NCBI GenBank assembly: GCA_964016885.1
Contig: OZ024741.1
Span: 175,646,001 to 175,710,000, forward strand
Direction: 5' to 3'
From: Eledone cirrhosa
Taxonomy: Eukaryota
DNA: 64,000 nucleotides
The translations under genes and the position numbers were made by a program. The notes under the pieces are model-generated. The model worked only from the letters and a program-made list of their open reading frames with translations. It was not told where the DNA came from and ran no database searches. Shown in pieces: positions 12,811 to 63,620 of the stretch. Within the stretch, counting starts at the first letter, position 1, and the number at the start of each line of letters is the position of its first letter.

Positions 12811-15800
12811 GCATTTATCTTGCTTTATGTTCATACGAGTTATCACCAAGTCACAACCAGTGACCTCAAGAGACAACAAGGTCCGCCATGTTCAAGAAAG
12901 AACATACATATTCACACATGCATCCTTAGTGTTTAGACTTGTGATGTACTTATATTGACAGGATCTTCCTTAGTATATGGGCAGTTCCCATTAGTACTAT
13001 CTTTTGTATTTCTCCTATACGCGGGTTTCCTGGGATTTGCGATAAGTAGTCGTTAGACCCCTTAGGTATCATTCCCAGAGCGTCTACAACCACTGGTATT
13101 GTTTTAGTTCTCAATTTCCACATTTCTCCAATTTCTATCTCCAGGTCCTTATACTTGCTCAATTTTTCAAATGTTTTTATAGATACATTCTTGTCTATTG
13201 GAACAGACATATCAATTAGCAGGCATACGCTCCTTTGAAAGTCCTTCAATATTATATCAGGTCTATTTGCATCTATTTTTCGGTCTGTTTGGATGCTAAA
13301 GTTCCACAAGATTGAGATGTGATCTTTTTTAAGTATGGGAGGTGGTTGATGCTCCCACCAATTCTTTTGATGTGGCAGGTCAAAATGCTTACACATTATC
13401 CAATGTATGTATTGTGCAGCTCTGTCATGCCTGTTTAGGTATTCGGTTGGAGCTATAGGACTGCACATTGAAATGATATGGTCAATGGTCTCTGGTTGTT
13501 TTTTGCATACACGGCATAATGGGCTGCACCCATTTTTTATTATGTTGGCTTGGTAATTTTTTGTTGGCAGACACTGATCTTGTGCCGATATAATCAGTCC
13601 TTCAGTCTCCGATTTCAGTCCAGAGGATGCCAACCACTGATGGGTTAAAGTTTTGTCAACATCAGGATTGTTAGCTCGCTCTGGGTATTTTCCATACAGA
13701 GGCTTTTCTTGCCATTTCTTAGCCAGTTTCTGTAGCAGTTATTTCTTTGCAGTTACTTTTACCTGCTTTGCTTTTTCTGTGTTTTCCATTTCAGCAGTAA
13801 ATGGGACTTCTGAAATTTGTAGTCCATTACTGTATCTTTGTGCATATTTTGTAATGGAATATGATCTTTTGGTGCTTTCGTGTTTCAAAACGAGTTTGAT
13901 CATCCAATCATGTGATTCCCTTAGATATGTGGATAATCCAATCGTTGCAGTTTTCAACGCAATGTCTAACTGGATTAACCCACGTCCTCCTTCTTTCCTA
14001 GGGAGATATATTCTATCTATGTCTGTCTTAGGTTGATGCATTCTGTGCATGGTTAAGAATTTTCGGATTTTTGTATCGAGCCTACGGATCTCTGTGCTTG
14101 ACCAGTTGATGACATTGTAACTGTAGGTTACTACTGGTATGGCAAGCGTGTTTATGGCATCGATCCTATTCCTTGCATTCAATTCCGTTCTTAAGATTGC
14201 TCTTACTCTGCGGTAACATTCCTTCCTTATCCTTTCCCTCATTGTCGAGTGCTTGATTCCGTCTCCTTCACAAACACCTAGATATTTGTAAGTTTTTTCT
14301 AGATCAAGCTCTCTTATCACGTTCCCCCGATCAAGATTAATGTCTGAACTCTTCAGCAGCTTTCCTCTGGTGAACGTTGCTTTGGCGCATTTATCCAGTC
14401 CAAACTCCATTTTTATGGCATCACTGAACTGCTTCACAGTGGATAATAGCCCTTGCAATTGTTCATCATTTTTTGCAAATAGTTTCAGGTCATCCATGTA
14501 GAACAGGTGATTAATGGTTTTGTCATAGACTCTATATCCATGTTTTGTTTCATTGAGCATTTTACGTAATGGTATAAGTGCGATGCAGAATAAAAGCGGT
14601 GATAAAGAGTCACCCTGAAAAATTCCACAATTAATATTAACTTCTCCAGCTTCCAGTGATTTTGTTTCACTATTCAAAAGGAGTGTCGTTCTCCATGTCC
14701 TCATACTGAATGACAAAAACCTCCTGACAACGGGGGATATTTTGAAAATCTCTAAACATTTTTCAATCCAACTGTGTGGCAAACTATCGAATGCTTTTTT
14801 ATAATCTATCCAAGCAATCGATAGATTTTTGTGTCTATTATGACAATCCTCCAGTATCATTTTGTTAACCAGAAGCTGATCCTTACAGCCATATGAGCCT
14901 CGTTTACACTATTTCTGCTCAATGGGAAATAGGTCATTTGTTATCAGGTGGTCATATGTGTATTCAGTTAGGACTGATGTTAAAATTTTATACATTGTGG
15001 TCAAGCAGGTTATCGGTCTGTAATTTTTGGGATTGTTTGTCTCATCATTCTTCGGTAGCAGGAATGTAATGCCGTTAACTAGCCATGATGGTATCGTTTC
15101 TGGCTCGTTAACTATTTCATTGTAAAGTTGGGCTAACAGCTCATGAGACTCTGTGAAGGCATTTATCCAAAAGTTTTGTATTTTGTCTTTTCCTGGGGAT
15201 TTCCATTTGCTGGTTTTTCTTAGAGCCAAGCGCAGCTGTTCAACTGTTATATTTTCCCATGTTTGTTCTTCAAGGTGAGCTGTTTCTTTCATTTGTCTGT
15301 CTATCCATGGGGCATGTATGTTATGAACTTTTTCTTCGGCCCAGATCTTTTCCCAGAATTCTTGCACTTCCTCCTTGGGTGGTATTGATTTAGCAGTTAT
15401 TGTTGACTTACCAATTTTTCTGTAGAAGTTTCTTTGGTTGTTTTTGAACATATTATTTTCCTTATAGAATCTAGATCGTTTTTCAAAGCGCCTTATACGA
15501 GCAGCTTTGGCCGACACTTTTTGCTTGATTGTTTCTATCAGCATGTCTATGTCACATGCTGATCTTATACTGTACTTTTTTTTCAATTTTCTAAGTTTAG
15601 TTTGTTTAACATGTTCACCTACTTTATAGTTTGTTAAAATTTCTATGTCAGATCGGAGAAGGTTTATTTGGCGATTGATGTTATCTTGACAAGTAGATTT
15701 CTTGTGGGAATTCCTTTGTTTTTTCATCTTCACTCCACATAAGTGAGTGGTGACTTTAGCCGATGCATAATAGAGATGATTTAAGTCAGTAATGTTTAGT

Positions 15801-17706
15801 TTGTTTGTGATGATAATGTTTTTGAGAATTATGTTAGTCTTGTGTATTATCTTTTGGTTCTGTTTGGAGTTCTGGATCTTAGGGAGGGTGTCTCGTTGCA
15901 CCATGTCAGATTCTTTCATTTTCATCCATTCGATCATAATTTCATCCTTCAAGTTGGCAAGTTCATTCTCATTCATTTCTTTATCATTTACGATCTCATT
16001 ATTTTCATTTGGAGTTTCATCCTGAGCATGCACTCCCTCCACTTTTTCGCTCCTTTCTTTAATTTGTTCTGTTGCCAGTGATTCCGCCCCAACCCTGGGA
16101 TTCGAAGTGTTACAGTTTACCTCGTTTTCACTGACACATGCTTCATTTTCCCTTCGCTGACTTTGTGCTACTAGCTTGATCTGATCAATTTCTATATCAG
16201 TTAGTAACTTTTTTCTTACAATATTTCTTCGTATATTGGCTAGTTTGTTACTGTCAATATAGCCTCTGTTTTCGGGATGTTTCTTTTTCCAGTTGATATA
16301 TGTCTGTTCTGTATTCGATGTATTTGATGGGTAGTACATGGCAGTGTAGAAAGCCTCAAGGACTTCTTTATTATCTTCCCTTGACCATTTTTCTCTCTTT
16401 TTCTTTGGATTTCTTGGTGGTGAGCATGGAGGGCCAACAGTAGGAGTATTCCGGTTATGGGAGGTCTCCAGCTCCGAAGTGATGGGAAGGTTTGAACCAT
16501 TAGCTGATTTTTCGACCCCAGTCTGGTTCCTCTCTGAGGGACGCGGCCCTTTTTTACCCGGGTGACGGCCGATCCGGTATGAGATTTTATCATTAGACAT
16601 TTACTTTATTTTGTCGCGTTTTATCCTTATCCGCCAAGGGGTAATCATTTCGTGTTACCACTTCTAGAACGAGTGTCAACCAAGACTAGAGGGGTCGTTC
16701 TCCCCTAGAGACATGGCTATTCCCCGCCGGCCACCATCCCGGTATTTCTTGGTCACGGGGTTTTCTTTTTGTTGTTTTTTTTAAAATTGTTATTATCATG
16801 ACTGGTTCCTTAATGTGAGCATTGCGTGGCTTAAGAATGAAATTATTAATAATTGTCTCCACTCCAGGCACAAGGCCAGTAATCACCCAGTGCATTACAA
16901 TGATATAATATACTTTTTGTTGTAGTTGGCTGTTATTGTTGTCGGTGGTGGTGCCGGGGCTTTTTATATTGTTGGTGAGGAAGGGGTGAGCCAGCAGTCC
17001 CATAATTGTTGATGTAGACTTTTGGCCGGTGGCAAGGTCACCAAGTCAATCTATTTATATCTTTTGCTAGCCTCTCTCTTGTCTAGTGATACCGCCACCT
17101 TCCCTTTTCTCTCTCAAGTTAACAGGGGAATAGTGTCAGTAGCATTGAATGAGTGGTGGCGGCGATGATGGATGTGGTGGGGTGGTGGCAGCGGTGGTGT
17201 TGTGGTTACTGATATAGTATCTATGAGTTTGTGTTCGTATGTTTAATATATATTTTTATTATATTTTGTGTTGTCATATTCCCGTAAAATTTGAATTAAA
17301 CATTTTTTAAAATTTGAGACAATAATCATAGTAATTATTATTATGATGCTGGTGAAATTGCCGTTATCTGGCTGTTATATTTAGAGTGATGGGATAGGTA
17401 GTGTATCAAGTTTCTGGTGTTGGTGAAATTGAAATTGCTGCTGTTCTATATAGTGTAGACAGAGGGTGTTTTGTTCCATTTATAACCATTTTCTTTTTTT
17501 GAATAAAAAATATATAATACAAAATTGAATATTTGAGCGATACAACAATATAATATGGATCCGAAACTTTATGGGACCTCATTCGGTGCCTTTATGCAAC
17601 ATTTGTGCTAAGAATTGTTCTTTCACAATTGATTTAAATATGTTAAAAATCAAAAAACTTACGGGAGCAATTTCGTGACGTTCTACCACCTCGTGCGTCT
17701 TCTTCC

Positions 17707-17707
<1 letters not shown>
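12806..17707 (-). mobile_element. R4/Dong-like family A, copy A2 (full length, ~4.9 kb, with ~1.1-kb 5' UTR)
   Basis: Starts GGGAAGAAGACGCACG right after (TAA)n; ends in a (TAA)n tail. Confidence 0.93.
12950..16600 (-). pseudogene. A2 single ORF (~1216 codons: N-terminal W-motif, RT, CCHC, RLE) with two in-frame stops (14909-14911, 13739-13741)
   Basis: The track ORFs starting at 16600, 14860 and 13633 are all in one frame. Confidence 0.92.
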
Positions 17708-17748: not shown

Positions 17749-20700
17749 TCCTTGAATCTCAGTCATTGATGTTGGTTAACTGGAAAGTCCGTTGGATTGA
17801 ATATCAAGCCACTACCTGCAGCCTCAGATATTCAGGACGTATCGGAGGGTTCTTGCTGTTCCAAGCAAGCATGCCTTTTGAAGCGTTCCAAAAAGCGTGA
17901 AGGGGCCGATTTTCTTTAACCATCCCTGGAAACTTTTGGAGATAGTCCCCAGTGCGCCTATGACAATCGGGATCACTTTGACTTCATGGCAGTTCCAAAT
18001 CCTTTTCACCTCCCACTTTAGGTCCTGGTATCGGTTAATTTTCTCCCTCTCCTTCTCTTGCACTCTCGTGTCGAACGGGCAGGCCACATCCACAATCAGA
18101 CACGATCTTTTTTCTTTGTTCACAACCACCAGGTCAGGTCTATTGTGTTCCAGTTTTTTGTCCGTCTGTATCCTAAAATCCCACAGCACCTTCACCTGAT
18201 TGTTCTCCATCACCGCCTCTGGCCTATGCTCATACCATTTCTCAGAATGTGGTAAATTGTTTACTTTGCACAGGTGCCAGTGGATCACCCTGCCCATCAC
18301 ATCGTGTCTCCAGCCCTTATAGTGGGTCTGGGCTAGGTGTTTACACTCGGACACAATGTGAGCCACAGTCTCCTCTCTCTCTCCACAGATCCTGCACAGT
18401 GGGCTAGCCTCCTCCTTGTAGATATGGTGCTTCAACCACTTCGTTTTGAGGGCCTGCTCCTGCGCAGCCATTAGCATTCCTTCTGTAGCCTTTTTGAGGT
18501 CTCCTCTTCTCAACCAGTTCCATGTCTGTGGATCTCTAAATTCAGTTTTCTCAAAGAAGGTACTATGAAGGGATTTTCCCTTAAGGCTGCTCTTCCTCCT
18601 TGATGTTATTTCCTCCTTGGACATCCCCTGGCCTACTGTCCCCTCCTTCAGTACAGTTCTGAGCATTGGCTCCTTACTATAGGTCACGTATTTGTATAGG
18701 TTGTTTTTCTCTATCTGAACACAGTCCTCTATGCTGATAAGACCTCTTCCACCCTCAGATCTCCTTAGGTAGAGTCTATCGACATCACTCCTCTTGTGGA
18801 ACATGTTGTAGATAGTCAATAGCTTCCTAGTCTTCCTATCCATTTCTTTTTGTTCAGCAACATTCCATCTCAGAATTCCCGCACTGTACCTTATAATAGA
18901 CACAGCTCGGAAATTTACTGCGCTTATGGCATTTCTGCTGTTCAGATGTGACTTCAATACGCTCCTTACTCTCCGAATGTATTCAGTTCTTAACAATTCC
19001 TTCATTTTTTTGTTCTTTATGCCATCAGCCTCCAGAACGCCCAAATACTTGTATCCTTCCTCAGAGTCAATTTCCTTTATCATCTCACCTGTTGGTATCT
19101 GGATCCCGTTACTTCTGCTCAACCTACCCCTCTTCATCACAATGACTCCACATTTACCAATACCAAACTGCATACATATATCACTGCTGAAAATACGGAC
19201 AGTGTCAACAAGCACATCCAACTCCTTCTCACTTTTCCCGAAGAGCTTAAGATCGTCCATGAAGAGGAGGTGATTGATGGTAAGCTCTCCCCTTCCCAAC
19301 TTGTATCCTGCTCTCACTTTTCGCAGCATAATGGTCAAGGGCATCAGGGCAAGGACAAACAACAGAGGGGACAGGCTATCTCCCTGGAAGATACCTCTCT
19401 TGATCTTCACGCTTCCCAAGGATACTCCAGTTGATGTCAACTCTGTCTCCCAGGACCCCATACTCCTGCCTAGCAACTGTCTGATGTTATCTGCCACCCT
19501 GAAGATCTCCAGGCTTTTGGTGATCCAGGAATGAGGCACCATGTCAAATGCCTTTCTGTAGTCTATCCATCCCATGGCAAGATCAGTGTGTCTCCTCCTG
19601 CAATTCCCCATTACCATCTTATCAATAAGTAACTGGTCCTTTGTACCACGTGACTTCTTTCGGCATCCTTTCTGTTCGTCCGGTAACAAGTTGTTTGTGT
19701 GGAGGTGATGGTAGATTTCCTCAGACACAATGCTCGTCAACAGTTTCCACATTACGGACAGACATGTGATAGGTCTATAGTTGGTAACATCATTACCCTT
19801 GATTCGGTCTTTCATTATCAGAACTGTGGTACCTTTTGTCAACCACTCTGGCACCTCACCCGACACCAAGCAGTCATTGAACATGGCCGTCAGCTTCGGG
19901 TGGAGGGATGTTAAATGTTTAATCCAATACCCCTGCACACCATCTGGGCCTGGTGATTTCCAGTTGGCTAGTTTTTTGGCCTGCCCCTTAAGAGTTTCAA
20001 CTGTGATACTCAAATCAGTTTGTTGTTGTGCCTGCTCACCGATCTCCCTCTGTACTGTCTCAATCCACCCTGCCTGGGCATTGTGTCTAACATCCTGCTC
20101 CCATATTCCCCTCCAGAATGTTTTAGTTTGCTCCGCCCCAGGGATCAAGTCGTTGCCTCTTTCTTTCCCCTCAAGCTGTCCAAACAGCATCTTCTGGTTG
20201 TTGTCGAACATGCGGTTCTGTTTATACTGACTGACTCTGTTCTCGTATCGCCTGATTTTTGCACTCTTTGCTACAATGCGTTGCTTCAGTTCCTCTATGA
20301 TAATATTTAGCTTTTTCCTCCTAGTTTTGTATTATATTTCCAGTCTATTTTTAGTGCCTATGTTTTTTAGTGTCCCATTCAGTAGTGACTCAAGCTTTCC
20401 TATGTCATTTCTCATTTCCCCGATTTGCCCACTCAGTCGCTTCTTCCACCACGGCTCTGCTCTTTCTTGTCTGTTGTTTCCTCTCGCTTTTATACCAAGT
20501 AGTTTCCTCACCGTATTTGCTGTTGCTTTGAGGATATTGTTGCACTGGTGAAGGCTCCTCGCCTCAAGGTATGGGATGACTTTGTTTACCTTAGCTGTTG
20601 TTTCTTTTAACTTTTTCCTGTCTACAAATCTTAGGTTCATAGGTCTCCCACTATCATTGTTCAATTCATCTACCACTAAATTTAGGATGTCAACCGAATC

Positions 20701-22249
20701 TTGTCCTAGCCCGTCAGCATTCATCTCCTCAGTGGCCGTATCTCTGTTCCAGGTATTATTTATCTCAGTATTCAGATCATTATCTGCTTCGGGTGGTTCC
20801 TCCGTTCTCAGGACCTCTTCACCTTCATTTCCCACTGGCTCGCTTGTCTGGCATACTACACCCGCCATCTCCAAGCCATTCTCTCTGCTCAGTTCCTCCA
20901 GTTCCAGCTCGCTTATCCATCCATTAGTTCTTATTACCCGAGCCTGCCCGGCCAATTTTTGTTCATCTAATTTAAATAAACCAATCTCGTTCCAGATGTT
21001 ATGCATCCGTCTCCTGTAGCCCCTCTCCTTGGGGTTACTTTTCAGGTAACATTGCATAACAGTTCTATTCAATTCTTTCGTCCAGTTGGTTCTGGCCCCT
21101 TTCCTTCTTCTCCTTCCTCCAACATCAGCAGTATTTGGTTGACAGTCAGGTTCCTGCTGCTGAGCCAGGGGGCACCTGTTGGGTGAGAGTCTGTCACATG
21201 ACGTTCTAGTCTCCATTTCACCGTTATTCGAACTGTTTATGTTCGATATTTAAACACTCTTATCGAGGATTGGCGAATGTATGGTTACATATCCATCTGT
21301 GGATCCGCCATTCCACTTGGCCCTTGTGTGGCATTATCACCACGCTGTATACGAACACACATAAACAAACAAACACACAGGCAGAAAGGGCCCCAAAAAT
21401 GAATAAGCATAAGTTTCATTGTAATGTAGTGTTCGAATGTCTGACTTAGTTTTTGTTTTTTAAGTTTTAGTTTTCCCCCCCTCTTCTCTGTCCGTCCGCC
21501 TGCTTCTCTCTTCATTCTTATTTTCTTTAGGTTTTTTTTTTTTTTTTTTTTTTTGGTTTTTCTGTTTGTTTTTTTTTGCTGTTATTGCTGTGCTGCTTTG
21601 GTTTTGTTGTTTGTTTTTTCTTTTTTCTTTTGAGTCTATCTATATATTTTGATGCCTTCCTCTTTTTTAGCAGTAGGGATTCTATAATGTGGTGGCTGCA
21701 GCCAGCTGGAAGGAGTGGGAGACTGGCGGCGGTAGCGATACTGAGACAGTGGTGGTGGTGATGTCGATACCGAGGCAGTGGTGGTGGTGATGTGGCCGTA
21801 TTACTGTAGTGATGGTGCTGTAGCGGTGGTAGCAGTGAAGGAGTGAAGGGGTGGTGGCGGCGGTGATGGGATAATGGTTGTAATGATGGCCGTAGTGAGC
21901 GGTGGTGGTTTAGTGTACACAGGTGATGGGGTGGGTGGTGTATCTAGTTTCTGGTGTTGGTGAGTTTGGCTTTTCTATATAGTGTAGACAGAGGAGGAGG
22001 GGGGGGTTCTTCTTCCATTTATAGCCATTTTCTTTTTTGGATATACATTGTACAATACAAAGTTGAATATTTGAATATTTGAGCCTTATAACAATATATT
22101 TTGGGTCCGAATTTTTTGGGGCTCAAGCCGGGTGCTTTACGTAGCATTTGTACTAAGAGTTGTTATTTCACAAATGATTTAAATATGTTAAAAATTCAAA
22201 ACTTACGGGAGCGATTTCATGACCTCCGTCACCTCGTGCGTCTCTTCCC
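17749..22249 (-). mobile_element. R4/Dong-like family B, copy B1 (full length, ~4.5 kb)
   Basis: Flanked by (TAA)n at 17708-17748 and 22251-22280; its 5' leader is shared with family A. Confidence 0.93.
17824..21216 (-). pseudogene. B1 ORF (~1130 codons, RT+CCHC+RLE) with a single nonsense codon at 20332-20334
   Basis: FMDD, CRICGEREETVAHIVSEC, RHD, NRPDLV, IVDVACP, EKINRY; copy B2 has AAA where B1 has TAA. Confidence 0.92.
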
Positions 22250-22494
22250 TATAATTATTATTATTATTATTATTATTATTGAATGCCATGGTTGACGGAG
22301 GCTCGGCTCTGTAAGGTATAGTAATTTTTAACCGTTAAAACAATTGTAAATTGTTTAAAACTTGAACCAAATTGTTGATAAAGACACCCTCCTCCTCGTG
22401 AGAGGGGTCTTTCTGTCCGTTATTTGGCCCTTCGGGTTAAATAACCAGTTATTGGGGTTTTGTACCCAAAATTTCATTTTAAACAAAAAACAAC

Positions 22495-24573
22495 ATGGCT
22501 ACGAAAAAGTAATTTCATACGTCACTCCCACTCATTCCGTCTTCTTCTTCCTCAATCATCACTACAGCAGAGAGAAGATTGTCTCTCTCCCTCCCTTCTT
22601 TAAATGTGTCTCTCTCCCTCCCTTCTCTTTCGCAAGTGACGAAAGAAAAGAAAAGTCTCGTGCAAAGCGTGCAAGGTTTCTCCACGACGACGACGACAGC
22701 GACGAAACAGGTGTGCGGGAAATACGAAAACCCAGTTCATTCGTCTGACGTCAGGAATAATAGCAGTAGCAGCCGTAATAACAACAGCAACAGTGACAAT
22801 GAAAACAACAGTAGCAGCCGCAACAGCATCACCAGCAGCATAAACAACAACAGCATTAGCAGCAGCAACACCAACAACAACCACAGCAACAGCGGCGGAG
22901 GCAGTAGTCGTAGTACCTGCAGCAACAACAAAAGTACCAGTAGCTCTGACGACAACAACAGAGAAAAACCAATCTCATTTGCAGGTATTGCGAAAAACTT
23001 GGAAACAATCCTCATAACAAATGAGGAATTAGAGGAAGCGAAGAAGATGGTGACAAAGAACGGACACCGAGCAATCTGCAAGGCAGCGAATAATTTTTTC
23101 GAAACCCAAGAGCACTGTACGGTCACGTACCGTACAGTAAGTACAAAATCCCGTAGGGTGGAAAGAGCCACAGAGGCCCAAATACAAAAAGCCTTGGGGT
23201 CTGTGTGGCAGCGGAAAACGCACATCACCCGAGGCAAAAAATACGCCACCGTAGACGTACTTTTTGCCACACCCCAGGAGGCAAAGGCCCAATCAGTAGT
23301 GACCCTAAGGAGCGAGGAAATGGTGTTGGTGCCCTCCTACTGCGGGCAAAAAATTGTGAGGGTCAAACTGACCCACGTCCCCCCCGGAATGACCCCTTCT
23401 TGGCTGGCCGCGTCTGTCCTCGTCGGAATCGAGGACAAAACAACTGTACTGCAAGTACAGAAAAAAGTAAGAGAAGATTGGGTCGGCTCCTCCATTGAGA
23501 TGCTAATCCAAACCAACCAGGAGTGCATCGAAGCTATCCCGGATGTGATAGACTTCGATAACGGCACTCAACTGCCCATAAGTGTTGAGGGCAAACGCCC
23601 GAAATGCTTTCGCTGTGGATCGAAGACTCACCTCAGGGCCTTCTGCAACGAGAAGACCCTGAGAAAGGAGAAAACCCCCCTCCTTCCGAATCCGGCTCCA
23701 CGGCTACCAGCAACAGGACAAGCGGCAACCAGGAACGATAGGTCCGTGGCACCCATACCCACTCCACGGAAATCAAAGACAGCAGCAGCAGTGGAAATAT
23801 TAACAACAACAGCAATACCAAATGCAGCTGCAACAGAGACTCCAGTGCAAACATCACCAACAACAACAAGTGAAAGAGTGGAGCTGGTACCCCTCCCCGA
23901 CCTTACAGAATCAGACATGGAGTGTGATGTGGGAGAGGGATGGCAAAAGATCGCAAGAAGGCACAAACGCAGAAGCAGCGCATCGTCGCCTTTGAAAAGG
24001 GAGGAAAGAAATGAGAAAAGGGTAAAGTCTACTGCAAAGAGACCCACAGCAGCAACACCACCAACACCATCACCACCCACACCAGCACCACCATCACCAC
24101 CGGCGACAACCCCACCGCCAACAACACCTTCAACACAAGCACCAACATCGCAAACACAACAACAAAACACACACACCCAGCAACAACGACAAGAAAATAG
24201 CAGAACCACACCCCACCCCCAGAAAAACAAATGCACGGCAATAAATACACACAACAAGAAACTAATGACTTACATAATTGAACACACAGACATTTCACAA
24301 CAGGACTACATAATACCAGCACCAATCAAAACGCCAACTAACATAAGACTGCTAAAAATAGCACAGAAACAATACACAAACATTAAAACGAAATTCCCCA
24401 ACGCAGTTGGTGATTTCAGGGACCTAGGAGGAACCATCAATCGAAGAGTATACTCAGACATTCTCTTAGAAGAGCCGACGACCAGCCGAAGGGACGATTC
24501 AACGGTCCCTTCACCAGACGATCAAGTGAAAAGGGATGTAAAAACCATCCCTCCTCTACCAAAAGTACGGTAA
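22495..24573 (+). pseudogene. T1 ORF1, gag-like with CCHC knuckle; nonsense at codon 6
   Basis: CFRCGSKTHLRAFC; ATG 22495 is in frame with the 664-aa ORF and matches MATKKKFH in T2; S/N-rich and P/T-rich low-complexity tracts. Confidence 0.85.
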
Positions 24574-24608
24574 GTGGTCTTTCCCATCTTTTCCACTTTA
24601 TTTTAAAC

Positions 24609-27600
24609 ATGACCTCACTCAGAATAGGCAGCATAAATGCGCGTGGCTTGGGGTCGTCATGGAAGCAGGGTCACCTGCTCAACGACCTCAGGTCACTAAA
24701 CATAGATGTAGTGGCCATCAGCGAGACCAGAATCTCCGAAGCACGGGCCTTCGCACCGATCTTCGGCGGCTACGATGTGTACGCATCTCCCAGCCGTCCT
24801 GGATCGGGTGGAGGAGTTGCTGTGCTTTTTCGGAGAGGTTTGGATCTCGCCATACGGGCCATCTTCCTGGACCCAGAGGGTAAGCTGGTGGTGCTGGACG
24901 TGACCAGCGGAGACGGGCAAGCTTTCAGGCTAGTGGCCGTCTATGCCCCGGCAGGAGCAGGGCGGCCTGATTTCTTCCGGCGTCTGGAGACCTTTCTTGG
25001 AACGTCCCGCTCTTTAGTGTTAGTGGGCGACTGGAACGGGATCTTAGATGCACGCTGGGACTGTGTGGGATTAGCGGATAGGGGTGGAGGGTGCAAGAGC
25101 CTCACCAACCTGCTCAGGCGTTTTGAACTGTCTGACAGGTACCGATTGGATTTCCCGAATGTGCCAATGTGGACTTGGACAAACCGCATAGGGTCATCCA
25201 GATCATATCTAGATAGAGTATTTTGTAGGGAAATAGATAGGTCTAGCATAGGCTGTCCACAATTCAAGATAGTCAGCTACACGGACCACAAATTCGTGAC
25301 CTGTGTGCTTGACTTAGATAGGCTTCATAGACGAGGACCCGGCTACTGGAAGCTAAACGCGTCTTTACCAGCGAGCAAGGCCTACAGAGACCGGATTAGC
25401 GAACTAGTTAAGCGGGCGTTGACGGGGGCCATCGTCAACAACAAGTGGTGGTTTGCTCTGAAAAGAGCGATTAGAATAGAATCGATTAGGTTTAGTAAGG
25501 CTTTAGCAATAGAGAAAAATAGAGCAGAGGGAGAACTAGTTAAAAAATTAGACGAGGCGCTTAGCAAAGGCATTGCGACCGACGTGCTTGCGGCGAAATT
25601 GGCCCTTGACCAATTCTTCAATGCAAAGCACGAAGGCTGCGTTGTCAGAGCTAGGGTGCGTGCTCTCAGACACGAGGGGACGAAAGCCGTTCAATGGGCC
25701 CGAGTGGCGGAGGCGCGTCGTGGCAACAAAGCCACGATCCGGTCTTTGGTGGACCACGACGGGCGCATGCTACTCGATCCCGGGCAAATGTGTGAAGCTT
25801 TTCAGCGACACTTCGCTCAGCTGTTCGGGGGCAGCGGGGGGCCGGGTAGAGGGATGGACTTTAGTGTCTACCTCGACGGACTGCCGCGGCTCTCGGCCAC
25901 TGAGGCGAAGTGTTGCGAAAAGCCGATAACAGCCGCTGAAGTAAGGGAGGCAATGACTGGCTGCACAAGGGGTAAATCGCCTGGTTTGGATGGTGTGCCC
26001 TATGAACTTTACGTACAGATGCCAGACTTGTTCGGAGGCCTCTTGGCAGACGTCTACTGCAACTGGCAACAGAACGGGAGAATTCCCAGTTCTGTGAGCC
26101 GAGGAGCGGTGGCACTGCTGAGAAAGGATCCGAACAAGGGGGATAACATAGACAATTTCCGGCCCATAACTCTGCTAAACACAGAGTTTAAGATTTTGGC
26201 CAAGGTGCTAGCAAAGAGGTTGGCGCTTGTCGTTGGTGGTCTGGTGGGAGAGGCGCAGACATGCGCCATTCCCGACAGATCCATCCACGACAACCTCCAC
26301 CTCATGCGATACATCGTAGAGAGGGTAGCTAGGGAACCTGGCACGGGTGGGTCCTTGATCAATTTAGATCAGTCGAAAGCTTTCGATAGGGTCGACCATC
26401 GTTACCTAGCGGCAGTCCTGAGGGCGGCTGGCTTTGGGCCCGTCTTCAGAGGCTGGATCGCTGCCATGCACAGCGACATCTGCTCTGTGGTGAGAGTGAA
26501 CGGTCACCTGTCGGAGCCGTTCAACATCATGCGCTCGGTCCGCCAAGGATGTCCCCTCACGTCCCTCTTGTACGTATTGACTCTCGAGCCATTACTGCAC
26601 AAACTGGAGACGTTGAGGGGAGTCCCGCGCGAACTAGGATGCGGAAGATCAGTGTCAGCATATGCGGACGATGTCACCGTAGTGGTGTAGAGCGCCAAAC
26701 ACATCGAGGCGATCGGCACTACACTAAGAGAATACGAAGCGGTGACAGGAGCAATGATCAACCAGGAAAAGTCAGTGGGCCTGCAGCTCGGCACCTGGAG
26801 AGGCAGGTCCATGCCGTCCAACAGCGTCGTCGGACGCTGGACGGACGGACCGGTTAAATTGCTAGGGGTCTGGTTCGGTCCGGACCTCCAGACGGACAAA
26901 AACTGGGACGAGGTGACGAGCAGGATGGCTTCTCTCACCCAGAAATGGGCGGAGAGGAAGCTATCCCTGAAAGGTCGAGCGGAGGTGGCTAACGCGTACA
27001 TCGTGTCCGTCATCTGCTACCGTCTGACCTTCGTACCTTGTCCTAAGCCTCGCCTGACTGCGCTGGAGCGTTTGCTCTTTCGCTTTTTGTGGAAGGGACG
27101 CGCTCCGATGGTCAGGCGGTCCATCTGTTGTCAACACCGGCTACGTGGAGGGCTGGGCATGCCGTGGCTGATGATGCGCAGGCACGCGCTCAGGCTACGA
27201 CATCTCCACCTCTTCCTCGACGGTGATCAGGTGTGGTCGCCGTTTGCTAGGCGCGTGTTTCCCCAGCTCGTTTCCTTGACGGAGCTGCAGTCCTGGGTCA
27301 AGCGAAGACCGAGAGGGAGCGCCTGGAGACTGGAATGTCTTCAGGCGCTCACAGCCCTCGACCAATCGGGCAATGTGATCGGTGGAAACTCCACCTCGGC
27401 GTTCTATAGAGGATTAGTGGAGGGAAGAGCGATGACGTACTTGGGGAAACTCTAGGCGTCGACGAAAATCAACTAGCCAATCTCTTCGGAAGAACTTTCG
27501 TGCCAGGGCCTATGGACAACTTCCAGAAATCTCTGGCCTGGCAGTGCTACCGAGGAGCCTTGCCAGTTCGGGATAAACTCTACAGGCATGGAGGTGCCGT

Positions 27601-28028
27601 CAGCCGGGCATGTCCGAGATGCACGCAGGGCGACGAAACCGTCCTGCACGCACTCGTCCAGTGTCCGAAAATTGCTGACTTGTGGGTTTATGTCGAACAC
27701 CTGCTGTCGCGTTTAGGACGGATCCGGCTATCATCTGAGTCCATCGTGAGGATTGCCCCGCCCTCCTCCTTTAGCCGGGAAGGGCAGGCAGTTTTTATCT
27801 GCCTGGTGGCCATGGTGAAAGAGATAGTATGGTGGACACGTTTGAAAGGGCTGAAGACGAGCACTTACCTCTTCGGTGATGCTCTGATTGACTTTTTCAA
27901 ATTTCATTTGAAAAGGAAAATCAGAGTAGAGAGGGAAGTGCTCTCTTCCCAGCATTTTGTTGAAAGATGGGTGAGAGAAGCAAGAATGGCCCGAGTGAAT
28001 GGGCCTACTCTGAGTATATATCTGTAAA
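24609..28028 (+). pseudogene. T1 ORF2: AP endonuclease + RT + C-terminal zinc finger; stop at 26688-26690 and frameshift ~27425
   Basis: SINARGL, ISET, VYAP, GDWN, YLDR, TDH; DQSKAFDRVDH, SVRQGCPL, YADD; CPRC..H..C. Confidence 0.93.
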
Positions 28029-28317
28029 TTAAAGGTGGAAAACTGGGAGAGGGCACTTGCCTTGGTGGTCAGGGTCATTGTGGCTTTTTACTGGGCTTTC
28101 ACCACAAATGTCCCTCCGAAGTCTCCCCCCTATTGGGGAATTTTTCATTGTTATTTTCATTGTTATTTTTGTTACATCCTCTGTTTTTGTTTTTTACACG
28201 CAGAAATGCCCATTTGTACCGTCCTGCATTGTCCTGCACTGTCCTTAATGTCTACTTTATGTAAACCCTTGTGGTTAATAAAGAAATCATTATTATTATT
28301 ATTATTGTTATTGTTAT

Positions 28318-31300
28318 TCCTTGAATCTCAGTCATTGATGTTGGTTAACTGGAAAGTCCGTTGGATTGAATATCAAGCCACTACCTGCAGCCTCAGATAT
28401 TCAGGACGTATCGGAGGGTTCTTGCCGTTCCAAGCAAGCATGCCTTTTGAAGCGTTCCAAAAAGCGTGAAGGGGCCGATTTTCTTTAACCATCCCTGGAA
28501 ACCTTTGGAGATAGTCCCCAGTGCGCCTATGACAATCGGGATCACTTTGACTTCATGGCAGTTCCAAATCCTTTTCACCTCCCACTTTAGGTCCTGGTAT
28601 CGGTTAATTTTCTACCTCTCCTTCTCTTGCACTCTCGTGTCGAACGGGCAGGCCACATCCACAATCAGGCACGATCTTTTTCTTTGTCCACAACCACCAG
28701 GTCAGGTCTATTGTGTTCCAGTTTTTTGTCCGTCTGTATCCTAAAATCCCACAGCACCTTCACCTGACTGTTCTCCATCACCGCCTCTGGCCTATGCTCA
28801 TACCATTTCTCAGAATGTGGTAGATTGTTTACTATGCACAGGTGCCAGTGGATCACCCTGCCCATCACATCGTGTCTCCAGCCCTTATAGTGGGTCTGGG
28901 CTAGGTGTTTACACTCGGAACACAATGTGAGCCACAGTCTCCTCTCTCTCTCCACAGATCCTGCACAGTGGGCTAGCCTCCTCCTTGTAGATATGGTGCT
29001 TCAACCACTTCGTTTTAAGGGGCTGCTCCTGCGCAGCCATTAGCATTCCTTCTGTAGCCTTTTTGAGGTCTCCTCTTCTCAACCAGTTCCATGTCTGTGG
29101 ATCTCTAAATTCAGTTTTCTCAAAGAAGGTACTATGAAGGGATTTTCCCTTAAGGCTGCTCTTCCTCCTTGATGTTATTTCCTCCTTGGGTATCCCCTGG
29201 CCTACTGTCCCCTCCTTCAGTACAGCTCTGAGCATTGGCTCCTTACTATAGGTCACGTATTTGTATAGGTTGTTTTTCTCCATCTGAACACAGTCCTCTA
29301 TGCTGATAAGACCTCTTCCACCCTCAGATCTCCTTAGGTAGAGTCTATCGACATCACTCCTCTCGTGGAACATGTTGTAGATAGTCAATAGCTTCCTAGT
29401 CTTCCTATCCATTTCTTTTTGTTCAGCAACATTCCATCTCAGAATTCCCGCACTGTACCTAATAATAGACACAGCTCGGGAATTTACTGCGCTTATGGCA
29501 TTTCTGCTGTTCAGATGTGACTTCAATACGCTCCTTACTCTCCGAATGTATTCAGTTCTTAACAATTCCTTCATTTTTTTGTTCTTTATGCCATCAGCCT
29601 CCAGAACGCCCAAATACTTGTATCCTTCCTCAGAGTCAATTTCCTTTATCATCTCACCTGTTGGTATCTGGATCCCGTTACTTCTGCTCAACCTACCCCT
29701 CCTCATCACAATGTCTCCACATTTACCAATACCAAACTGCATACATATATCACTGCTGAAAATACGGACAGTGTCAACAAGCACATCCAACTCCTTCTCA
29801 CTTTTCCCGAAGAGCTTGAGATCGTCCATGAAGAGGAGGTGATTGATGGTAAGCTCTCCCCTTCCCAACTTGTATCCTGCTCTCACTTTTCGCAGCATAA
29901 TGGTCAAGGGCATCAGGGCAAGGACAAACAACAGAGGGGACAGGCTATCTCCCTGGAAGATACCTCTCTTGATCTTCACGCTTCCCAAGGATACTCCAGT
30001 TGATGTCAACTCTGTCTCCCAGGACCCCATACTCCTGCCCAGCAACTGTCTGATGTTATCTGCCACCCTGAAGATCTCCAGGCTTTTGGTGATCCAGGAA
30101 TGAGGCACCATGTCAAATGCCTTTCTGTAGTCTATCCATCCCATGGCAAGATCAGTGTGTCTCCTCCTGCAATTCCCCATTACCATCTTATCAATAAGCA
30201 ACTGGTCCTTTGTACCACGTGACTTCTTTCGGCATCCTTTCTGTTCGTCCGGCAACAAGTTGTTTGTGTGGTGGTGATGGTAGATTTCCTCAGACACAAT
30301 GCTCGTCAACAGTTTCCACATTACGGGCAGACATGTGATAGGTCTATAGTTGGTAACATCATTACCCTTGATTCGGTCTTTCATTATCAGAACTGTGGTA
30401 CCTTTTGTCAACCACTCTGGCACCTCACCCGACACCAAGCAGTCATTGAACATGGCCGTCAGCTTCGGGTGGAGGGATGTTAAATGTTTAATCCAATACC
30501 CCTGCACACCATCTGGGCCTGGTGATTTCCAGTTGGTTAGTTTTTTGGCTTGCCCCTTAAGAGTTTCAACTGTGATACTCAAATCAGTCTGTTGCTGTGC
30601 CTGCTCACCGATCTCCCTCTGTACTGTCTCAATCCACCCTGCCTGGGCATTGTGTCTAACATCCTGCTCCCATATTCCTCTCCAGAATGTTTTAGCTTGT
30701 TCCGCCCCAGGGATCAAGTCGTTGCCTCTTTCTTTCCCCTCAAGCTGTCCAAACAGCATCTTCTGGTTGTTGTCGAACATGCGGTTCTGTTTATACTGAC
30801 TGACTCTGTTCTCGTATCACCTGATTTTGGCACTCTTTGCTACAATGCGTTGCTTCAATTCCTCTATGATAATATTTAGCTTTTTACTCCTAGTTTTGTA
30901 TTTTATTTCCAGTCTATTTTTAGTGCCTATGTTTTTTAGTGTCCCATTCAGTAGTGACTCAAGCTTTCCTATGTCATTTCTCATTTCCCCGATTTGCCCA
31001 CTCAGTCGCTTCTTCCACCACGGCTCTGCTCTTTCTTGTCTGTTGTTTCCTCTCGCTTTTATACCAAGTAGTTTCCTCACCGTATTTGCTGTTGCTTTGA
31101 GGGTATTGTTGCACTGGTGAAGACTCCTCGCCTCAAGGTATGGGATGACTTTGTTTACCTTAGCTGTTGTTTCTTTTAACTTTTTCCTGTCTACAAATCT
31201 TAGGTTCATAGGTCTCCCACTATCATTGTTCAACTCATCTACCACTAAATTTAGGATGTCAACCGAATCTTGTCCTAGCCCGTCAGCATTCATCTCCTCA

Positions 31301-31762
31301 GTGGCCGTATCTCTGTTCCAGGTATTATTTATCTCAGTATTCAGATCATTGTCTGCTTCGGGTGGTTCCTCCGTTCTCAGGACCTCCTCACCTTCATTTC
31401 CCACCGGCTCGCTTGTCTGGCATACTACACCCGCCATCTCCAAGCCATTCTCTCTGCTCAGTTCCTCCAGTTCCAGCTCGCTTATCCACCCATTAGTTCT
31501 TATTACCCGAGCCTGCCCGGCCAATTTTTGTTCATCTAATTTAAATAAACCAATCTCGTTCCAGATGTTATGCATCCGTCTCCTGTAGCCCCTCTCCTTG
31601 GGGTTACTTTTCAGGTAGCATTGCATAACAGTTCTATTCAATTCTTTCGTCCAGTTGGTTCTGGCCCCTTTCCTTCTTCTTCTTCCTCCAACATCAGCAG
31701 TATTTGGTTGACAGTCAGGTTCCTGCTGCTGAGCCAGGGGGCACCTGTTGGGTGAGAGTCTG

Positions 31763-31764
<2 letters not shown>
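28318..31764 (-). mobile_element. Family B copy B2 (5'-truncated just inside the ORF start; stop at 30817, frameshifts ~28920 and ~28680)
   Basis: Near-identical to B1; (TTA)n at 31765-31818. Confidence 0.93.
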
Positions 31765-31818
<54 letters not shown>

Positions 31819-33402: not shown

Positions 33403-33464
<62 letters not shown>

Positions 33465-33471
33465 TAATAAT

Positions 33472-36400
33472 GATTTCTTTATTAACCACAAGGTTTTACA
33501 TAAAGTAGACATTAAGGACAGTGCAGGACAATGCAGGACGGTACAAATGGGCATTTCTGCGTGTAAAAAACAAAAACAGAGGATGTAACAAAAAATAACA
33601 ATGAAAAATTCCCCAATAGGGGGGAGACTTCGGAGGGACATTTGTGGAGAAAGCCCAGTAAAAAGCCACAATGACCCTGACCACCAAGGCAAGTGCCCTC
33701 TCCCAGTTTTCCACCTTTAATTTACATATATATACTCAGAGTAGGCCCATTCACTCGGGCCATTCTTGCTTCTCTCACCCATCTTTCAACAAAATGCTGG
33801 GAAGAGAGCACTTCCCTCTCTACTCTGATTTTCCTTTTCAAATGAAATTTGAAAAAGTCAATCAGAGCATCACCGAAGTGGTAAGTGCTCGTCTTCAGCC
33901 CTTTCAAACGTGTCCACCATACTATCTCTTTCGCCATGGCCACCAGGCAGATAAAAACTGCCTGCCCTTCCAGGCTAAAGGAGGAGGGCGGGGCAATACT
34001 CACGATGGACTCAGATGATAGCCGGATCCGTCCTAAACGCGACAGCAGGTGTTCGACATAAACCCACAAGTCAGCAATGCTCGGACACTGGACGAGTGCG
34101 TGCAGGACGGTTTCGTCGCCCTGCGCGCATCTCGGACATGCCCGGCTGACGGCACCTCCATGCCTGTAGAGTTTATCCCGAACTGGCAAAGCTCCTCGGT
34201 AGCACTGCCAGGCCAGAGATTTCTGGAAGTTGTCCATAGGCCCTGGCCCGAAAGTTCTTCCGAAGAGATTGGCTAGTTGATTTTCGTCGACGCCTAGAGT
34301 TTCCCCAAGTACGTCGTCGCTCTTCCCCTCCACTAATCCTCTATAGAACGCCGAGGTGGAGTTTACACCGATCACATTGCCCGATTGGTCGAGGGCTGTG
34401 AGCGCCTGAAGACATTCCAGTCTCCAGGCGCTCCCTCTCGGTCTTCGCTTGACCCAGGACTGCAGCTCCGTCAAGGAAACGAGCTGGTGAAATACGCGTC
34501 TAGCAAACGGCGACCACACCTTATCACCGTCGAGGAAGAGGTGGAGATGTCGTAGCCTGAGCGCGTGCCTGCGCATCATCAGCCACGGCATGCCCAGCCC
34601 TCCACGTAGCCGGTGTTGACAACAGATGGACCGCCTGACCATCGGAGCGCGTCCCTTCCACAAAAAGCGAAAGAGCAAACAACTCCAGCGCAGTCAGGCG
34701 AGGCTTAGGACAAGGTACGACGGTCAGGCGGTAGCAGATGACGGACGCGATGTACGCGTTAGCCACCTCCGCTCGACCTTTCAGGGATAGCTTCCTCTCG
34801 GCCCATTTCTGGGTGAGAGAAGCCACCCTGCTCGTCACCTCGTCCCAGTTTTTGTCCGTCTGGAGGTCCGGACCGAACCAGACCCCTAGCAATTTAACCG
34901 GTCCATCCGTCCAGCGTCCGACGACGCTGTTGGACGGCATGGACCTGCCTCTCCAGGTGCCGAGCTGCAGGCCCACTGACTTTTCCTGGTTGATCATTGC
35001 TCCTGTCACCGCTTCGTATTCTCTTAGTGTAGTGCCGATCGCCTCGATGTGTTTGGCGTTCGACACCACTACGGTGACATCGTCCGCATATGCTGACACG
35101 GATCTTCCGCATCCTAGTTCGCGCGGGACGGCCCTCAACGTCTCCAGTTTGTGCAGTAATGGCTCGAGAGTCAATACGTACACGAGGGACGAGAGGGGAC
35201 ATCCTTGGCGGACCGAGCGCATGATGTTGAACGGTTCCGACAGGTGACCGTTCACTCTCACCACAGAGCAGATGTCGCTGTGCATGGCAGCGATCCAGCC
35301 TCTGAAGACGGGCCCAAAGCCAGCCGCCCTCAGGACTGCCGCTAGGTAACGATGGTCGACCCTATCGAAAGCTTTCGACTGATCTAAATTGATCAAGGAC
35401 CCACCCGTGCCAGGTTCCCTAGCTACCCTCTCTACGATGTATCGCATGAGGTGGAGGTTGTCGTGGATGGATCTGTCGGGAATGGCGCATGTCTGCGCCT
35501 CTCCCACCAGACCACCAACGACAAGCGCCAACCTCTTTGCTAGCACCTTGGCCAAAATCTTAAACTCTGTGTTTAGCAGAGTTATGGGCCGGAAATTTTC
35601 TATGTTATCCCCCTTGTTCGGATCCTTTCTCAGCAGTGCCACCGCTCCTCGGCTCACAGAACTGGGAATTCTCCCGTTCTGTTGCCAGTTGCAGTAGACG
35701 TCCGCCAAGAGGCCTCCGAACAAGTCTGGCATCTGTACGTAAAGTTCATAGGGCAGACCATCCAAACCACGCGATTTACCCCTTGTGCAGCCTGTCATTG
35801 CCTCCCTTACTTCAGCGGCTGTTATCGGCTTTTCGCAACACTTCGCCTCAGTGGCCGAGAGCCGCGGCAGTCCGTCGAGGTAGACACTAAAGTCCATCCC
35901 TCGACCCGGCCCACCGCTGCCCCCGAACAGCTGAGCGAAGTGTCGCTGAAAAGCTTCACACATTTGCCCGGGATCGAGTAGCATGCGCCCGTCGTGGTCC
36001 ACCAAAGACCGGATCGTGGCTTTGTTGCCACGATGCGCCTCCGCCACTCGGGCCCATTGAACGGCTTTCGTCCCCTCGTGTCCGAGAGCACGCACCCTTG
36101 CTCTGACAACGCAGCCTTCGTGCTTTGCATTGAAGAATTGGTCAAGGGCCAATTTCGCTGCAAGCACGTCGGTCGCAATGCCTTTGCTAAGCGCCTCGTC
36201 TAATTTTCTAACTAGTTCTCCCTCTGGTCTATTTTTCTCTATTGCCAAAGCCTTACTAAACCTAATGGATTCTATTCTAATCGCTCTTTTCAGAGCAAAC
36301 CACCACTTGTTGTTGACGATGGCACCCGTCAACGCCCGCTTAACTAGTTCGCTAATCCGGTCTCTGCAGACCTTGCGCGCTGGTAAGGACGCGTTTAGCT

Positions 36401-38837
36401 TCCAGTAGCCGGGTCCTCGTCTATGTAGCTTATCTAAGTCAAGCACACAGATCACGAATTTGGGCTCCGTGTAGCTGACTATCTTGAATTGTGGACAGCC
36501 TATGCTAGACCTATCTATTTCCCTACAAAATACTCTATCTAGATATGATCTGGATGACCCTATGCGATTTGTCCAAGTCCACATTGGCGCATTCGGGAAA
36601 TCCAATCAGTACCTGTCAGACAGTTCTAAACGCCTGAGCAGGTTGGTGAGGCTCTTGCACCCTCCACCCCTATCCGCTAATCCCACACAGTCCCAGCGTG
36701 CATCTAAGATCCCGTTCCAGTCGCCCACTAACACTAAAGAGCGGGACGTTCCAAGAAAGGTCTCCAGACGCCGGAAGAAATCAGGCTGCCCTGCTCCTGT
36801 CGGGGCATAGACGGCCACTAGCCTGAAAGCTTGCCCGTCTCCGCTGGTCACGTCCAGCACCACCAGCTTACCCTCTGGGTCCAGGAAGATGGCCCGTATG
36901 GCGAGATCCAAACCTCTCCGAAAAAGCACAGCAACTCCTCCACCCGATCCAGGACGGCTGGGAGATGCGTACACATCGTAGCCGCCGAAGATCGGTGCGA
37001 AGGCCCGTGCTTCGGAGATTCTGGTCTCGCTGATGGCCACTACATCTATGTTTAGTGACCTGAGGTCGTTGAGCAGGTGACCCTGCTTCCATGACGACCC
37101 CAAGCCACGCGCATTTATGCTGCCTATTCTGAGTGAGGTCATGTTTAAAATAGAGTGGAAAAGATGGGAAAGACCACTTACCGTACTTTTGGTAGAGGAG
37201 GGATGGTTTTTACATCCCTTTTCACTTGATCGTCTGGTGAAGGGACCGTTGAATCGTCTCTTCGGCTGGTCGTCGGCTCTTCTAAGAGAATGTCTGAATA
37301 TACTCTTCGATTGAATATACTCTGCTGCTGTTTTTGATTTCCGTGGAGTGGGTATGGGTGCCACGGACCTATCGTTTCTGGTTGCTGCTTGTCCTGTTGC
37401 TGGTAGCCGTGGAGCCGGATTCGGAAGGAGGGGGGGTTTCTCCTTTCTCAGGGTCTTCTCGTTGCAGAAGGCCCTGAGGTGAGTCTTCGATCCACAGCGA
37501 AAGCATTTCGGACGTTTGCCCTCAACACTTATGGGCAGTTGAGTGCCGTTATCGAAGTCTATCACATCCGGGTAACTTCGATGCACTCCTGGTTGGTTTG
37601 GATTAGCATCTCAATGGAGGTGCCTACCCAATCTTCTCTTACTTTTTTCTGTACTTGCAGTACAGTTGTTTTGTCCTCGATTCCGACGAGGACAGACGCG
37701 GCCAGCCAAGAAGGGGCCATTCCGGGGGGGACGTGGGTCAGTTTGACCCTCACAATTTTTTGCCCGCAGTAGGAGGGCACGAACACCATTTCCTCGCTCC
37801 TTAGGGTCACTACTGATTGGGCCTTTGCCTCCTGGGGTGTGGCAAAAAGTACGTCTACGGTGGCATATTTTTTGCCTCGGGTGATGTGCGTTTTCCGCTG
37901 CCACACAGACCCCAAGGCTTTTTGTATCTGAGCCTCTGTGGCTCTTTCCACCCTATGGGATTTTGTACTTACTGTACGGTACGTGACCGTACAGTGCTGT
38001 TGGGTTTCGAAAAATTTTTCCGCTGCCTTGCAGATTGCTCGGTGTCCATTCTTTGTCTCCATCTTCTTCGCTTCCTCTAATTCCTCATTTGTTATGAGGA
38101 TTGTTTCCAAGTTTTTCGCAATGCCTGCAAATGAGATTGGTTTTTCTTTGCTGCTATTGTTGTTGTTGTCGTCAGAGCTGCTGGTACTTTTGTTGTTGCT
38201 GCAGGTACTACGACTACTGCCTCCGCCGCTGTTGCTGTGGTTGTTGTTGGTGTTGCTGCTGCTAATGCTGTTGTTGTTTATGCTGCTGGTGATGCTGTCG
38301 CGGCTGCTACTGTTGTTTTCATTGTCACTGTTGCTGTTGTTATTACGGCTGCTACTGCTATTATTCTTGACGTCAGACGAATGAACTGGGTTTTCGTATT
38401 TCCCGCACACCTGTTTCGTCGCTGTCGTCGTCGTCGTGGAGAAACCTTGCACGCTTTGCACGAGACTTTTCTTTTCTTTCGTCACTTGCGAAAGAGAAGG
38501 GAGGGAGAGAGACACATTTAAAGAAGGGAGGGATAGAGACAATCTTCTCTCTGCTGTAGTGATGATTGAGGAAGAAGACGGAATGAGTGGGAGTGACGTA
38601 TGAAATTTCTTTTTCGTAGCCATGTTGTTTTTTGTTTAAAATGAATATTGGGTACAAAACCCCAATAACTGGTTATTTAACCCCGAAGGGCCAAATAACG
38701 GACAGAAAGACCCCTCTCACGAGGAGGAGGGTGTCTTTATCAACAATTTGGTTCAAGTTTTAAACAATTTACAATTGTTTTAACGGTTAAAAATTACTAT
38801 ACCTTACAGAGCCGAGCCTCCGTCAACCATGGCATTC
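33472..38837 (-). mobile_element. Tx1 copy T2: full 5' end; ORF1 from 38623 with a frameshift and ~650-bp deletion; ORF2 37142-33722 with a stop at 36606 and a frameshift ~34680
   Basis: Near-identical to T1, including the 5' start GAATGCCATGG. Confidence 0.92.
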
Positions 38838-38872
<35 letters not shown>

Positions 38873-49060: not shown

Positions 49061-49120
<60 letters not shown>

Positions 49121-49122
<2 letters not shown>

Positions 49123-49307
49123 TGTTTCTACTTTAGGCACAAAGCCAGCAATTACCCAGTGCATTACTGGTACTTTATTTTATCGACCCCATATGGATGA
49201 AAGGCAAAGTCAACCTCGGCGGGATTTGAACTCAGATCGTAAAGGGACGTAACTATGCTGCAAAGCATGGCGTCCGACCCTCTACCGATACTGCCAATCC
49301 ACCGCCC

Positions 49308-49309
<2 letters not shown>
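49121..49309 (-). mobile_element. Full-length SINE inside (AAT)n
   Basis: Reverse complement of the 9298-9490 family; B-box GAGTTCAAATCC. Confidence 0.9.
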
Positions 49310-49351
<42 letters not shown>

Positions 49352-56517: not shown

Positions 56518-56695
56518 AATTGTTTCTACTTTTGGCACAAGGCCAGCAATTATCCCAGTGCATTACTGGTACTATATTTTATCGACCCCGTAAGGATGAA
56601 AGGCAAAGTTAACCTCAGCGGGATTTGAACTCAGAATGGCAAGGGCCGTAACTCTTTGCGTCAAAGCATGGCGTCCGACCCTTTACCGATACTGT
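56518..56695 (-). mobile_element. SINE
   Basis: Same family, minus strand. Confidence 0.85.
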
Positions 56696-56817
56696 TAATA
56701 GTTATTGTTGACTTGTTGACTTTAATAGTTATTGTTGACTGAATCTGGAACGTTTTTTAAAGCGCCTTATGCGAGCAGCTTTGAGCAACTCTTCTTACTT
56801 GATTATTTCTATGCCTA

Positions 56818-63618: not shown

Positions 63619-63620
<2 letters not shown>
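63448..63620 (-). mobile_element. SINE followed by (TA)n at 63621-63685
   Basis: Same SINE family, minus strand. Confidence 0.85.

Follow-up and report, generated by a model that had tools for sequence, protein, structure and literature searches.

Two distantly related families of LINEs in the genome of Eledone cirrhosa, here called A and B, carry the same 5' leader sequence. The best explanation overall, to which we assign a probability of about 0.72, is that this leader is the normal 5' end of both of these TAA-targeting families and likely their internal promoter, that a subfamily of A received it from B, and that at an earlier time it likely moved the other way, from A to B. Sharing of the leader across the whole genome, conflict between the leader tree and the relationships of the ORFs, and a B-to-A junction with surviving intermediates are each demonstrated at the level of sequence.

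The 64,000 nucleotides analysed here (the window) contain a cluster of LINEs stacked within (TAA)n tracts, in a host genome whose assembly is 3.0 Gb long. Families A (elements A2, A3 and A5) and B (B1 and B2) have one ORF each, with RT followed by a CCHC motif and a restriction-like endonuclease and with no APE; a single ORF with RT and then a restriction-like endonuclease is the domain layout of the Dong/R4 clade. A Pfam scan of the A and B proteins returned RVT_1 only, the motifs C-X2-C-X8-H-X4-C and RPD..D..K are present in both, and their best PDB matches are R2 proteins. TAA-type tracts precede nearly all of 90 leader starts sampled (below) and are also found after the 3' ends of A and B; by these features A and B are classed as Dong/R4-type LINEs inserting into (TAA)n. 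Since the 120 best homologues of B (ranked by score to B) are 43–66% identical to B and 32–40% identical to A, the split between the two families is a deep one. The homologues and cluster members that were read bear no informative names. The 5' UTRs of A and B are ~1.0–1.4 kb long, and intact B ORFs of 1128–1130 amino acids are present at other genomic loci. The features of the window that bear on the leader are as follows:

21830..22249, minus strand: B1 leader, the portion that every A and B type has; here of the young "beta" kind, with the AT block deleted; TATAAAT at 22023.
Within 21830..22249, minus strand: B1 leader positions 1 to ~235, colinear in a profile search with L1-group 5' UTRs.
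21691..21829, minus strand: ACC-rich, B-derived segment, carried over into A along with the leader; on the B side, the breakpoint of the B-to-A capture is immediately downstream of a motif that begins at 21691.
21217..21690, minus strand: remainder of the B 5' UTR, with the remnant of an older leader layer.
17824..21216, minus strand: B1 ORF (RT, CCHC and RPD..D..K endonuclease) with one in-frame stop.
38873..39419, plus strand: A3 leader, beta type, B-derived; short form after a probable ~237-bp deletion from a chimeric intermediate.
39420..43514, plus strand: A3 body, made up of the rest of the A 5' UTR, an ATG at 40000, a broken ORF and a 3' end ahead of a TAA tail.
17145..17707, minus strand: A2 leader, alpha type, with the AT block and an internal (TAA)3 tract at 17335–17343.
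17335–17343 in A2, minus strand: the end of this type of internal tract corresponds to the A-side breakpoint of the B-to-A capture.
12806..17144, minus strand: A2 body, with an ORF from 16600 to 12950 that has in-frame stops.
51128..51697, plus strand: A5 leader, the oldest A type.
22281..28289, plus strand: element C (ORF1 and APE-RT, L1 group), antiparallel within the same TAA/TTA tract as B1; its 5' UTR (22281–22497) is weakly colinear with the leader.
33442..38837, minus strand: second C copy, head to head with the A3 leader.
28305..31765, minus strand: B2, which has no leader because it is 5'-truncated near the ORF start.

The window also holds copies of a SINE-like repeat of ~200 bp (9284–9491, 49115–49324, 54605–54804, 56517–57014 and 63445–63622), which is abundant, frequently adjoins TAA tracts and may be octopus-like, and a near-perfect tandem repeat with a 591-bp period whose first unit is inverted (2903–6662). 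A ~50-nt piece of the A 5' UTR (16850–16900 and ~39722) resembles that SINE's 3' end (76%, E 1e-6).

The leaders of B1 (22249 to 21715, minus strand) and A3 (38873–39419, plus strand) align over ~535 and 547 bp, the homology ending at 21715 and 39419. Their nearly identical starts, described in the initial annotation, are borne out by a mismatch of 1.6% over the initial 250 bp, against 4.3% overall (gaps excluded), as is the distant similarity of the proteins behind them, which are 35% identical in translations read through stops with X; at the DNA level the A and B ORFs are alike in short patches only. About the first 420 nt of the leader are all that is common to every type, and the last ~120 nt common to B1 and A3 are B-derived. 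A2 (from 17707) and A5 (from 51128) do carry diverged versions (70–77%) with an AT block, but this block is not an extra one as was first thought: it is present in old A, old B and mid-age B and has been lost from young B. All four leaders start with GGGAAGA(A)GACGCACG after a TAA tract, though not always directly after it: 0–15 bases intervene.

Homology of the B1 and A3 regions continues for 6 kb upstream of the leaders, where near-identical C copies abut both, and 21715–28318 matches 33442–39419 in inverted orientation with 2% mismatch; the presence of C beside both leaders gives the window the look of an inverted duplication. This match is what could be said for B1 being a one-off chimera, a misassembly or part of a local inverted duplication of C and leader, an explanation that we consider extremely improbable. 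The B leader is found on many contigs with different flanks, and the leaders of B1 and A3 each group with their own subfamily in the leader tree (below). C lies on the strand opposite to the adjoining A or B, with its 5' ends after (TTA)n in 29 of 30 cases and its 3' ends before (TTA)n in 28 of 32 (these loci were picked through A or B and are biased to that extent), so that head-to-head pairs arise independently. Inverted duplication as the cause of the shared leader is ruled out by the genome-wide copies.

The 16-mer at the leader start has 1,359 exact matches in the genome, and its reversed control has none. In similarity searches, in which the best 40 candidates were scored, the other top matches of the B1 leader led into B in 29 of 29 cases with varied upstream neighbours. 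The initial annotation had allowed that other full-length B copies might have a 5' end of their own; instead, leader sequence, whole or in part, is present in 29 of 29 other top B copies (28 include its core; the flanks vary), which makes the leader B's normal 5' end. The 69 B copies anchored at the ORF start, whose flanks were read directly, had no foreign 5' end in common.

Sampling by position gave 90 leader starts (90 of the first 100 of the 1,359 matches, all on one contig, and missing old B, in which the 16th base differs); 60 lead into B, 27 into A (23 alpha leaders, 2 beta leaders and 2 old A) and 3 into internally deleted copies. Thirty A copies anchored at the ORF start, a set that overlaps these 90, comprised 4 beta leaders, 19 alpha or old leaders and 7 that were too short. 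The suggestion that the leader is an independently mobile module finds no footing here, since the 90 starts include no solo-leader family. Nor do they include an amplified non-autonomous family made of leader plus 3' end in the manner of SIDEs: the three internal deletions are single-copy, and each joins the leader to a downstream part at a different junction with 2–4 nt of microhomology. Among individual oddities, one locus (L211) is a ~120-bp mini-element in which the leader's initial 89 nt are joined to the terminal ~30 nt of B, with a TAA tail, and two B copies (L293 and L356) have inverted 5' segments, as in twin priming.

The claim that leader and ORF relationships conflict holds up well: leader trees reject family monophyly, and divergences are discordant. 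The leader tree (106 rows, its root set by relative copy age) is a ladder that runs from oldest A through old B and mid-age B to a beta clade in which young B is found together with the A3 type; alpha A splits off close to old B, and the leader of the oldest B copies branches among old A leaders. ORF identity to B1 climbs along the B part of this ladder from 92–95% to 99%. In AU tests on 55 of the 106 rows, "all B" as a clade was rejected (p = 1.5e-5), as was "alpha + A-beta (A3 type)" (p = 1e-4), and "B + A-beta" was not (p = 0.31). A-beta and A-alpha differ by 1.5–2.0% in their ORFs and by 12–14% in their leaders, and the A-beta leader differs from that of young B by 2.8–3.7%. Resolution at the base of the leader tree is poor, with 6 label changes in the free tree, and the alpha leader, too, may have come by way of B. 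No branch of the A ORF tree is starred, and an old A-like fragment at 57009–57849 has no close family (best other matches 73–75%) and thus gives no outgroup. A further set of contigs, considered for the same purpose, gave 3 pieces at depth 2–3, too thin to serve as one. Our best reading of these relationships is that the leader has been exchanged between A and B at least twice.

Divergent families of L1 in lizard, frog and fish are described as retaining conserved 5' termini without replacement (PMC5381506), and by analogy the leader might have been inherited from the ancestor of A and B and held alike by selection, with no exchange at all. The data leave almost no room for such shared descent. 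The leader is not slow but accumulates fixed differences faster than fourfold sites in both A (46/279 in the leader against 10/371, p = 4e-10) and B (27/280 against 19/354, p = 0.045), A-beta and B leaders are ~3% apart while the ORFs share only those short DNA patches, and the AU tests and junction intermediates refute it. The fast leader divergence in A may reflect a further swap.

Exchange from B to A is recorded in the junctions themselves, from which we conclude that ~610 nt of the B 5' end passed to a subfamily of A. Twenty-four distinct A-beta copies were compared: four have a long junction (L088, L089, L302 and L329), 16 have the shorter A3 joint and 4 missed the anchor motif. In the four with the long junction the B 5' end runs ~30 nt further and is followed by A's own AT block, part of the leader being present twice, and the joint has a 4-nt microhomology, AATT, at the end of A's internal (TAA)3–4 tract. 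The shorter A3 joint is explained by an apparent deletion of ~237 bp. Apart from one nested B insertion, A-beta bodies are pure A. The 19 A-beta copies that were read all lack a complete ORF (the best has 1149 of 1217 amino acids), so the present autonomy of this subfamily is inferred from its amplification.

An earlier capture of the leader by B from A is likely. The oldest B leader is 86% like that of old A (L291 compared with L135), and at 29 of 30 old-B loci the A-like piece extends ~60 nt past the leader, where it breaks off in B and continues in A. Downstream of its leader B has a second, older leader layer that also matches A (a 57-nt block with a score of 72 against a maximum of 41 in 1000 shuffles; HMM E values of 0.003–0.1 in most copies). 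An old-A-like leader upstream of an older leader remnant in the oldest B copies implies the earlier A-to-B capture, and, as a duplicated layout also marks the recipient in the B-to-A case, B appears by parallel to have been the recipient here. The older layer itself suggests that another exchange came before this one. Neither 30 of 187 marker matches nor the 69 ORF-anchored copies yielded a B copy with a pre-capture 5' end, so that the direction, from A to B, is read from relative copy age and from structure.

The order of events would then be as follows. Old A would have carried the leader; B would have acquired ~690 nt of the A 5' end, placed upstream of its own older, homologous 5' layer; the leader would have evolved within B and lost its AT block; and ~610 nt of the B 5' end would have become fused to an A copy, at the TAA tract inside the A leader, a later deletion giving the A3 type. 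As to the route, common TAA targeting would stack the families in head-to-tail order, RNA reading through from an upstream leader would continue into a 5'-truncated neighbour and be shortened by a microhomology-guided RT jump or by DNA deletion, and the shortened product could become a new master element. A tandem resembling such a precursor exists (L405/L406): full-length B, then TAA, then an A truncated at the same internal tract, although L405 is without its upstream half. Read-through of a B-TAA-A tandem plus one deletion would give the observed chimera. None of 81 leaders has an element inserted inside its internal tract. The initial annotation favoured template switching; the tandem-array deletion route fits as well.

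A direct RT jump between separate RNAs of the two families, with no tandem precursor, seems to us rather unlikely. R2 jumps to other RNAs in vivo (PMC3414825), transfers of the mouse L1 5' UTR are mostly among co-active families (PMC3600994), and the junction microhomology is short, all of which would suit it. The A-side breakpoint, however, is the internal TAA tract, where tandem B-TAA-A joints occur (2 of 5 expanded-tract matches), which is suggestive only, as both routes yield an identical product.

What the exchanged leader does can be approached computationally. It had been proposed as a promoter or an RNA-processing module, and a self-cleaving ribozyme that frees the element from read-through RNA would be the obvious form of the latter: Bombyx mori Dong and Ascaris R4 self-cleave at their 5' junction by means of an HDV-like ribozyme (PMC3774820), the leader has a sharp start at a G, and tandem arrays would yield co-transcripts. 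Such a function is nonetheless improbable. Rfam scans gave no match and nothing near the gathering score; an HDV descriptor (run without a positive control) had no matches in five of six 5' UTRs and only wobble-rich ones in the sixth; folding z-scores of the first 100–160 nt were -0.8 to +1.4; the consensus fold of 34 leaders (-1.6 kcal/mol) was no better than column shuffles; and the four commonest pair types listed for each pair showed no compensatory change. Immediately upstream of the A ATG (window 16600–16770), complementary segments could, judged by eye, form a pseudoknot; folding gave no signal there (z-score ~0.4) and Rfam no match.

The leader is probably an internal promoter. A tandem duplicate of a ~325-bp unit bearing TATAAAT is present in 18 of 59 B copies. 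Four B copies (L352, L368, L348 and L365) have 2–4 tandem units of leader positions ~160–486, like mouse L1 monomer arrays.

The leader also resembles the 5' UTRs of the elements with which it shares its tracts. Element C has an ORF1 and an APE-RT ORF2 and belongs to the L1 group (Exo_endo_phos, RVT_1 and zf-RVT; best PDB match L1 ORF2, E 3e-39); family D was placed in that group by inspection of translations, and family E, which was located through the leader profile, by ORF1 likeness to C alone (37%). These related families lie antiparallel in one microsatellite (window 22281–28289, 33442–38837 and from 43515; loci L035 and L151 for D, L341 and L134 for E), and could possibly be a TTA-specific L1/Tx1 lineage. 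When a profile of 34 leaders was run against 1.7 Mb of loci, its best match outside A and B was the C 5' UTR (18 bits, E 5e-4, with C decoys at ≤2.9 bits), colinear from position 17 to 235 and ending at the C ORF1 ATG. A combined C+D+E profile matched the oldest A leaders at 10–10.5 bits (340 shuffles gave ≤2.5), D alone gave no signal against the leader profile (≤2.4 bits), reciprocal searches with single-family profiles gave weaker matches, and pairwise comparisons of the leader with C and D 5' ends gave borderline scores, only profiles setting them apart from decoys. This match was found post hoc.

We hold homology of the leader with the C, D and E 5' UTRs to be moderately probable, and it is likely, if on weak evidence, that its first ~230 nt come ultimately from the 5' UTR of L1-group elements using the opposite strand of this microsatellite. 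That the likeness is convergence, within AT-rich DNA, on promoter motifs of the host is possible, if not probable: the scores are low (10–18 bits), C copies are near-identical and so are not independent tests, and D alone gives no match. Against convergence, ~220 nt are colinear and end at an ORF1 start context that opens no long ORF in the leader, C and D, whose ORF1s are seemingly related, themselves reach merely 9–14 bits, and the highest scores are those of the oldest A leaders. If homology is accepted, colinearity with L1-group 5' UTRs makes the leader likely a borrowed internal promoter; that the 5' UTR is one is established for mammalian L1 (PMC5381506) and assumed for C. Our joint reading, put forward tentatively and at slightly less than an even chance, is that the TAA microsatellite acts as a promoter exchange in which the Dong/R4 5' ribozyme was replaced by an L1-group 5' UTR, after which A and B swapped this fast-evolving promoter at least three times, each step being preserved as a layer or an intermediate.

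The closest parallel is replacement of the L1 5' UTR in mouse and primates, where, as described in PMC3600994 and PMC5381506, 5' ends are gained and moved repeatedly between co-active families, 5' units are duplicated in tandem and 5' evolution is fast. The sign by which such replacement is recognised, a 5'-end history in conflict with that of the ORF, is found for A and B. The L1 families of those accounts come from one lineage, whereas the A and B ORFs are only distantly similar, and the transfer between A and B was likely reciprocal and its intermediates survive. In Drosophila R2/R1 hybrid SIDEs a 5' module likewise crosses between distant non-LTR elements with a common target locus and tandem arrays, and a template jump or non-homologous recombination has been proposed (PMC3414825); SIDEs, however, are non-autonomous and their module is an HDV-like ribozyme, whereas A and B are full-length coding families with no ribozyme seen. 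B. mori Dong is alike in its TAA target and its single ORF with RT and restriction-like endonuclease, but has an active 5' HDV-like ribozyme (PMC3774820), none being detectable in the long 5' UTRs of A and B. The genome of Octopus vulgaris also has several Dong-R4 and L1-Tx1 families with recent activity, and the text available of that account contains neither "UTR" nor "chimer" (PMC13282606). No report of a comparable exchange was found in the literature searched, the scope of which left out Repbase and most subscription papers.

The way in which a LINE acquires a new 5' end is usually deduced from the finished elements; a single genome here has the donor, the recipient, the junction, intermediates and a tandem resembling the precursor, which makes the mechanism testable. 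L1 lineages that coexist for long are reported to carry promoters that are not homologous (PMC3600994, PMC5381506), whereas A and B coexist on one leader, and two active lineages on one leader run contrary to the L1-derived idea that coexisting lineages must have different promoters. If the L1-group origin of the leader is true, these families would have switched from ribozyme processing to a captured promoter, and would have done so across clades.
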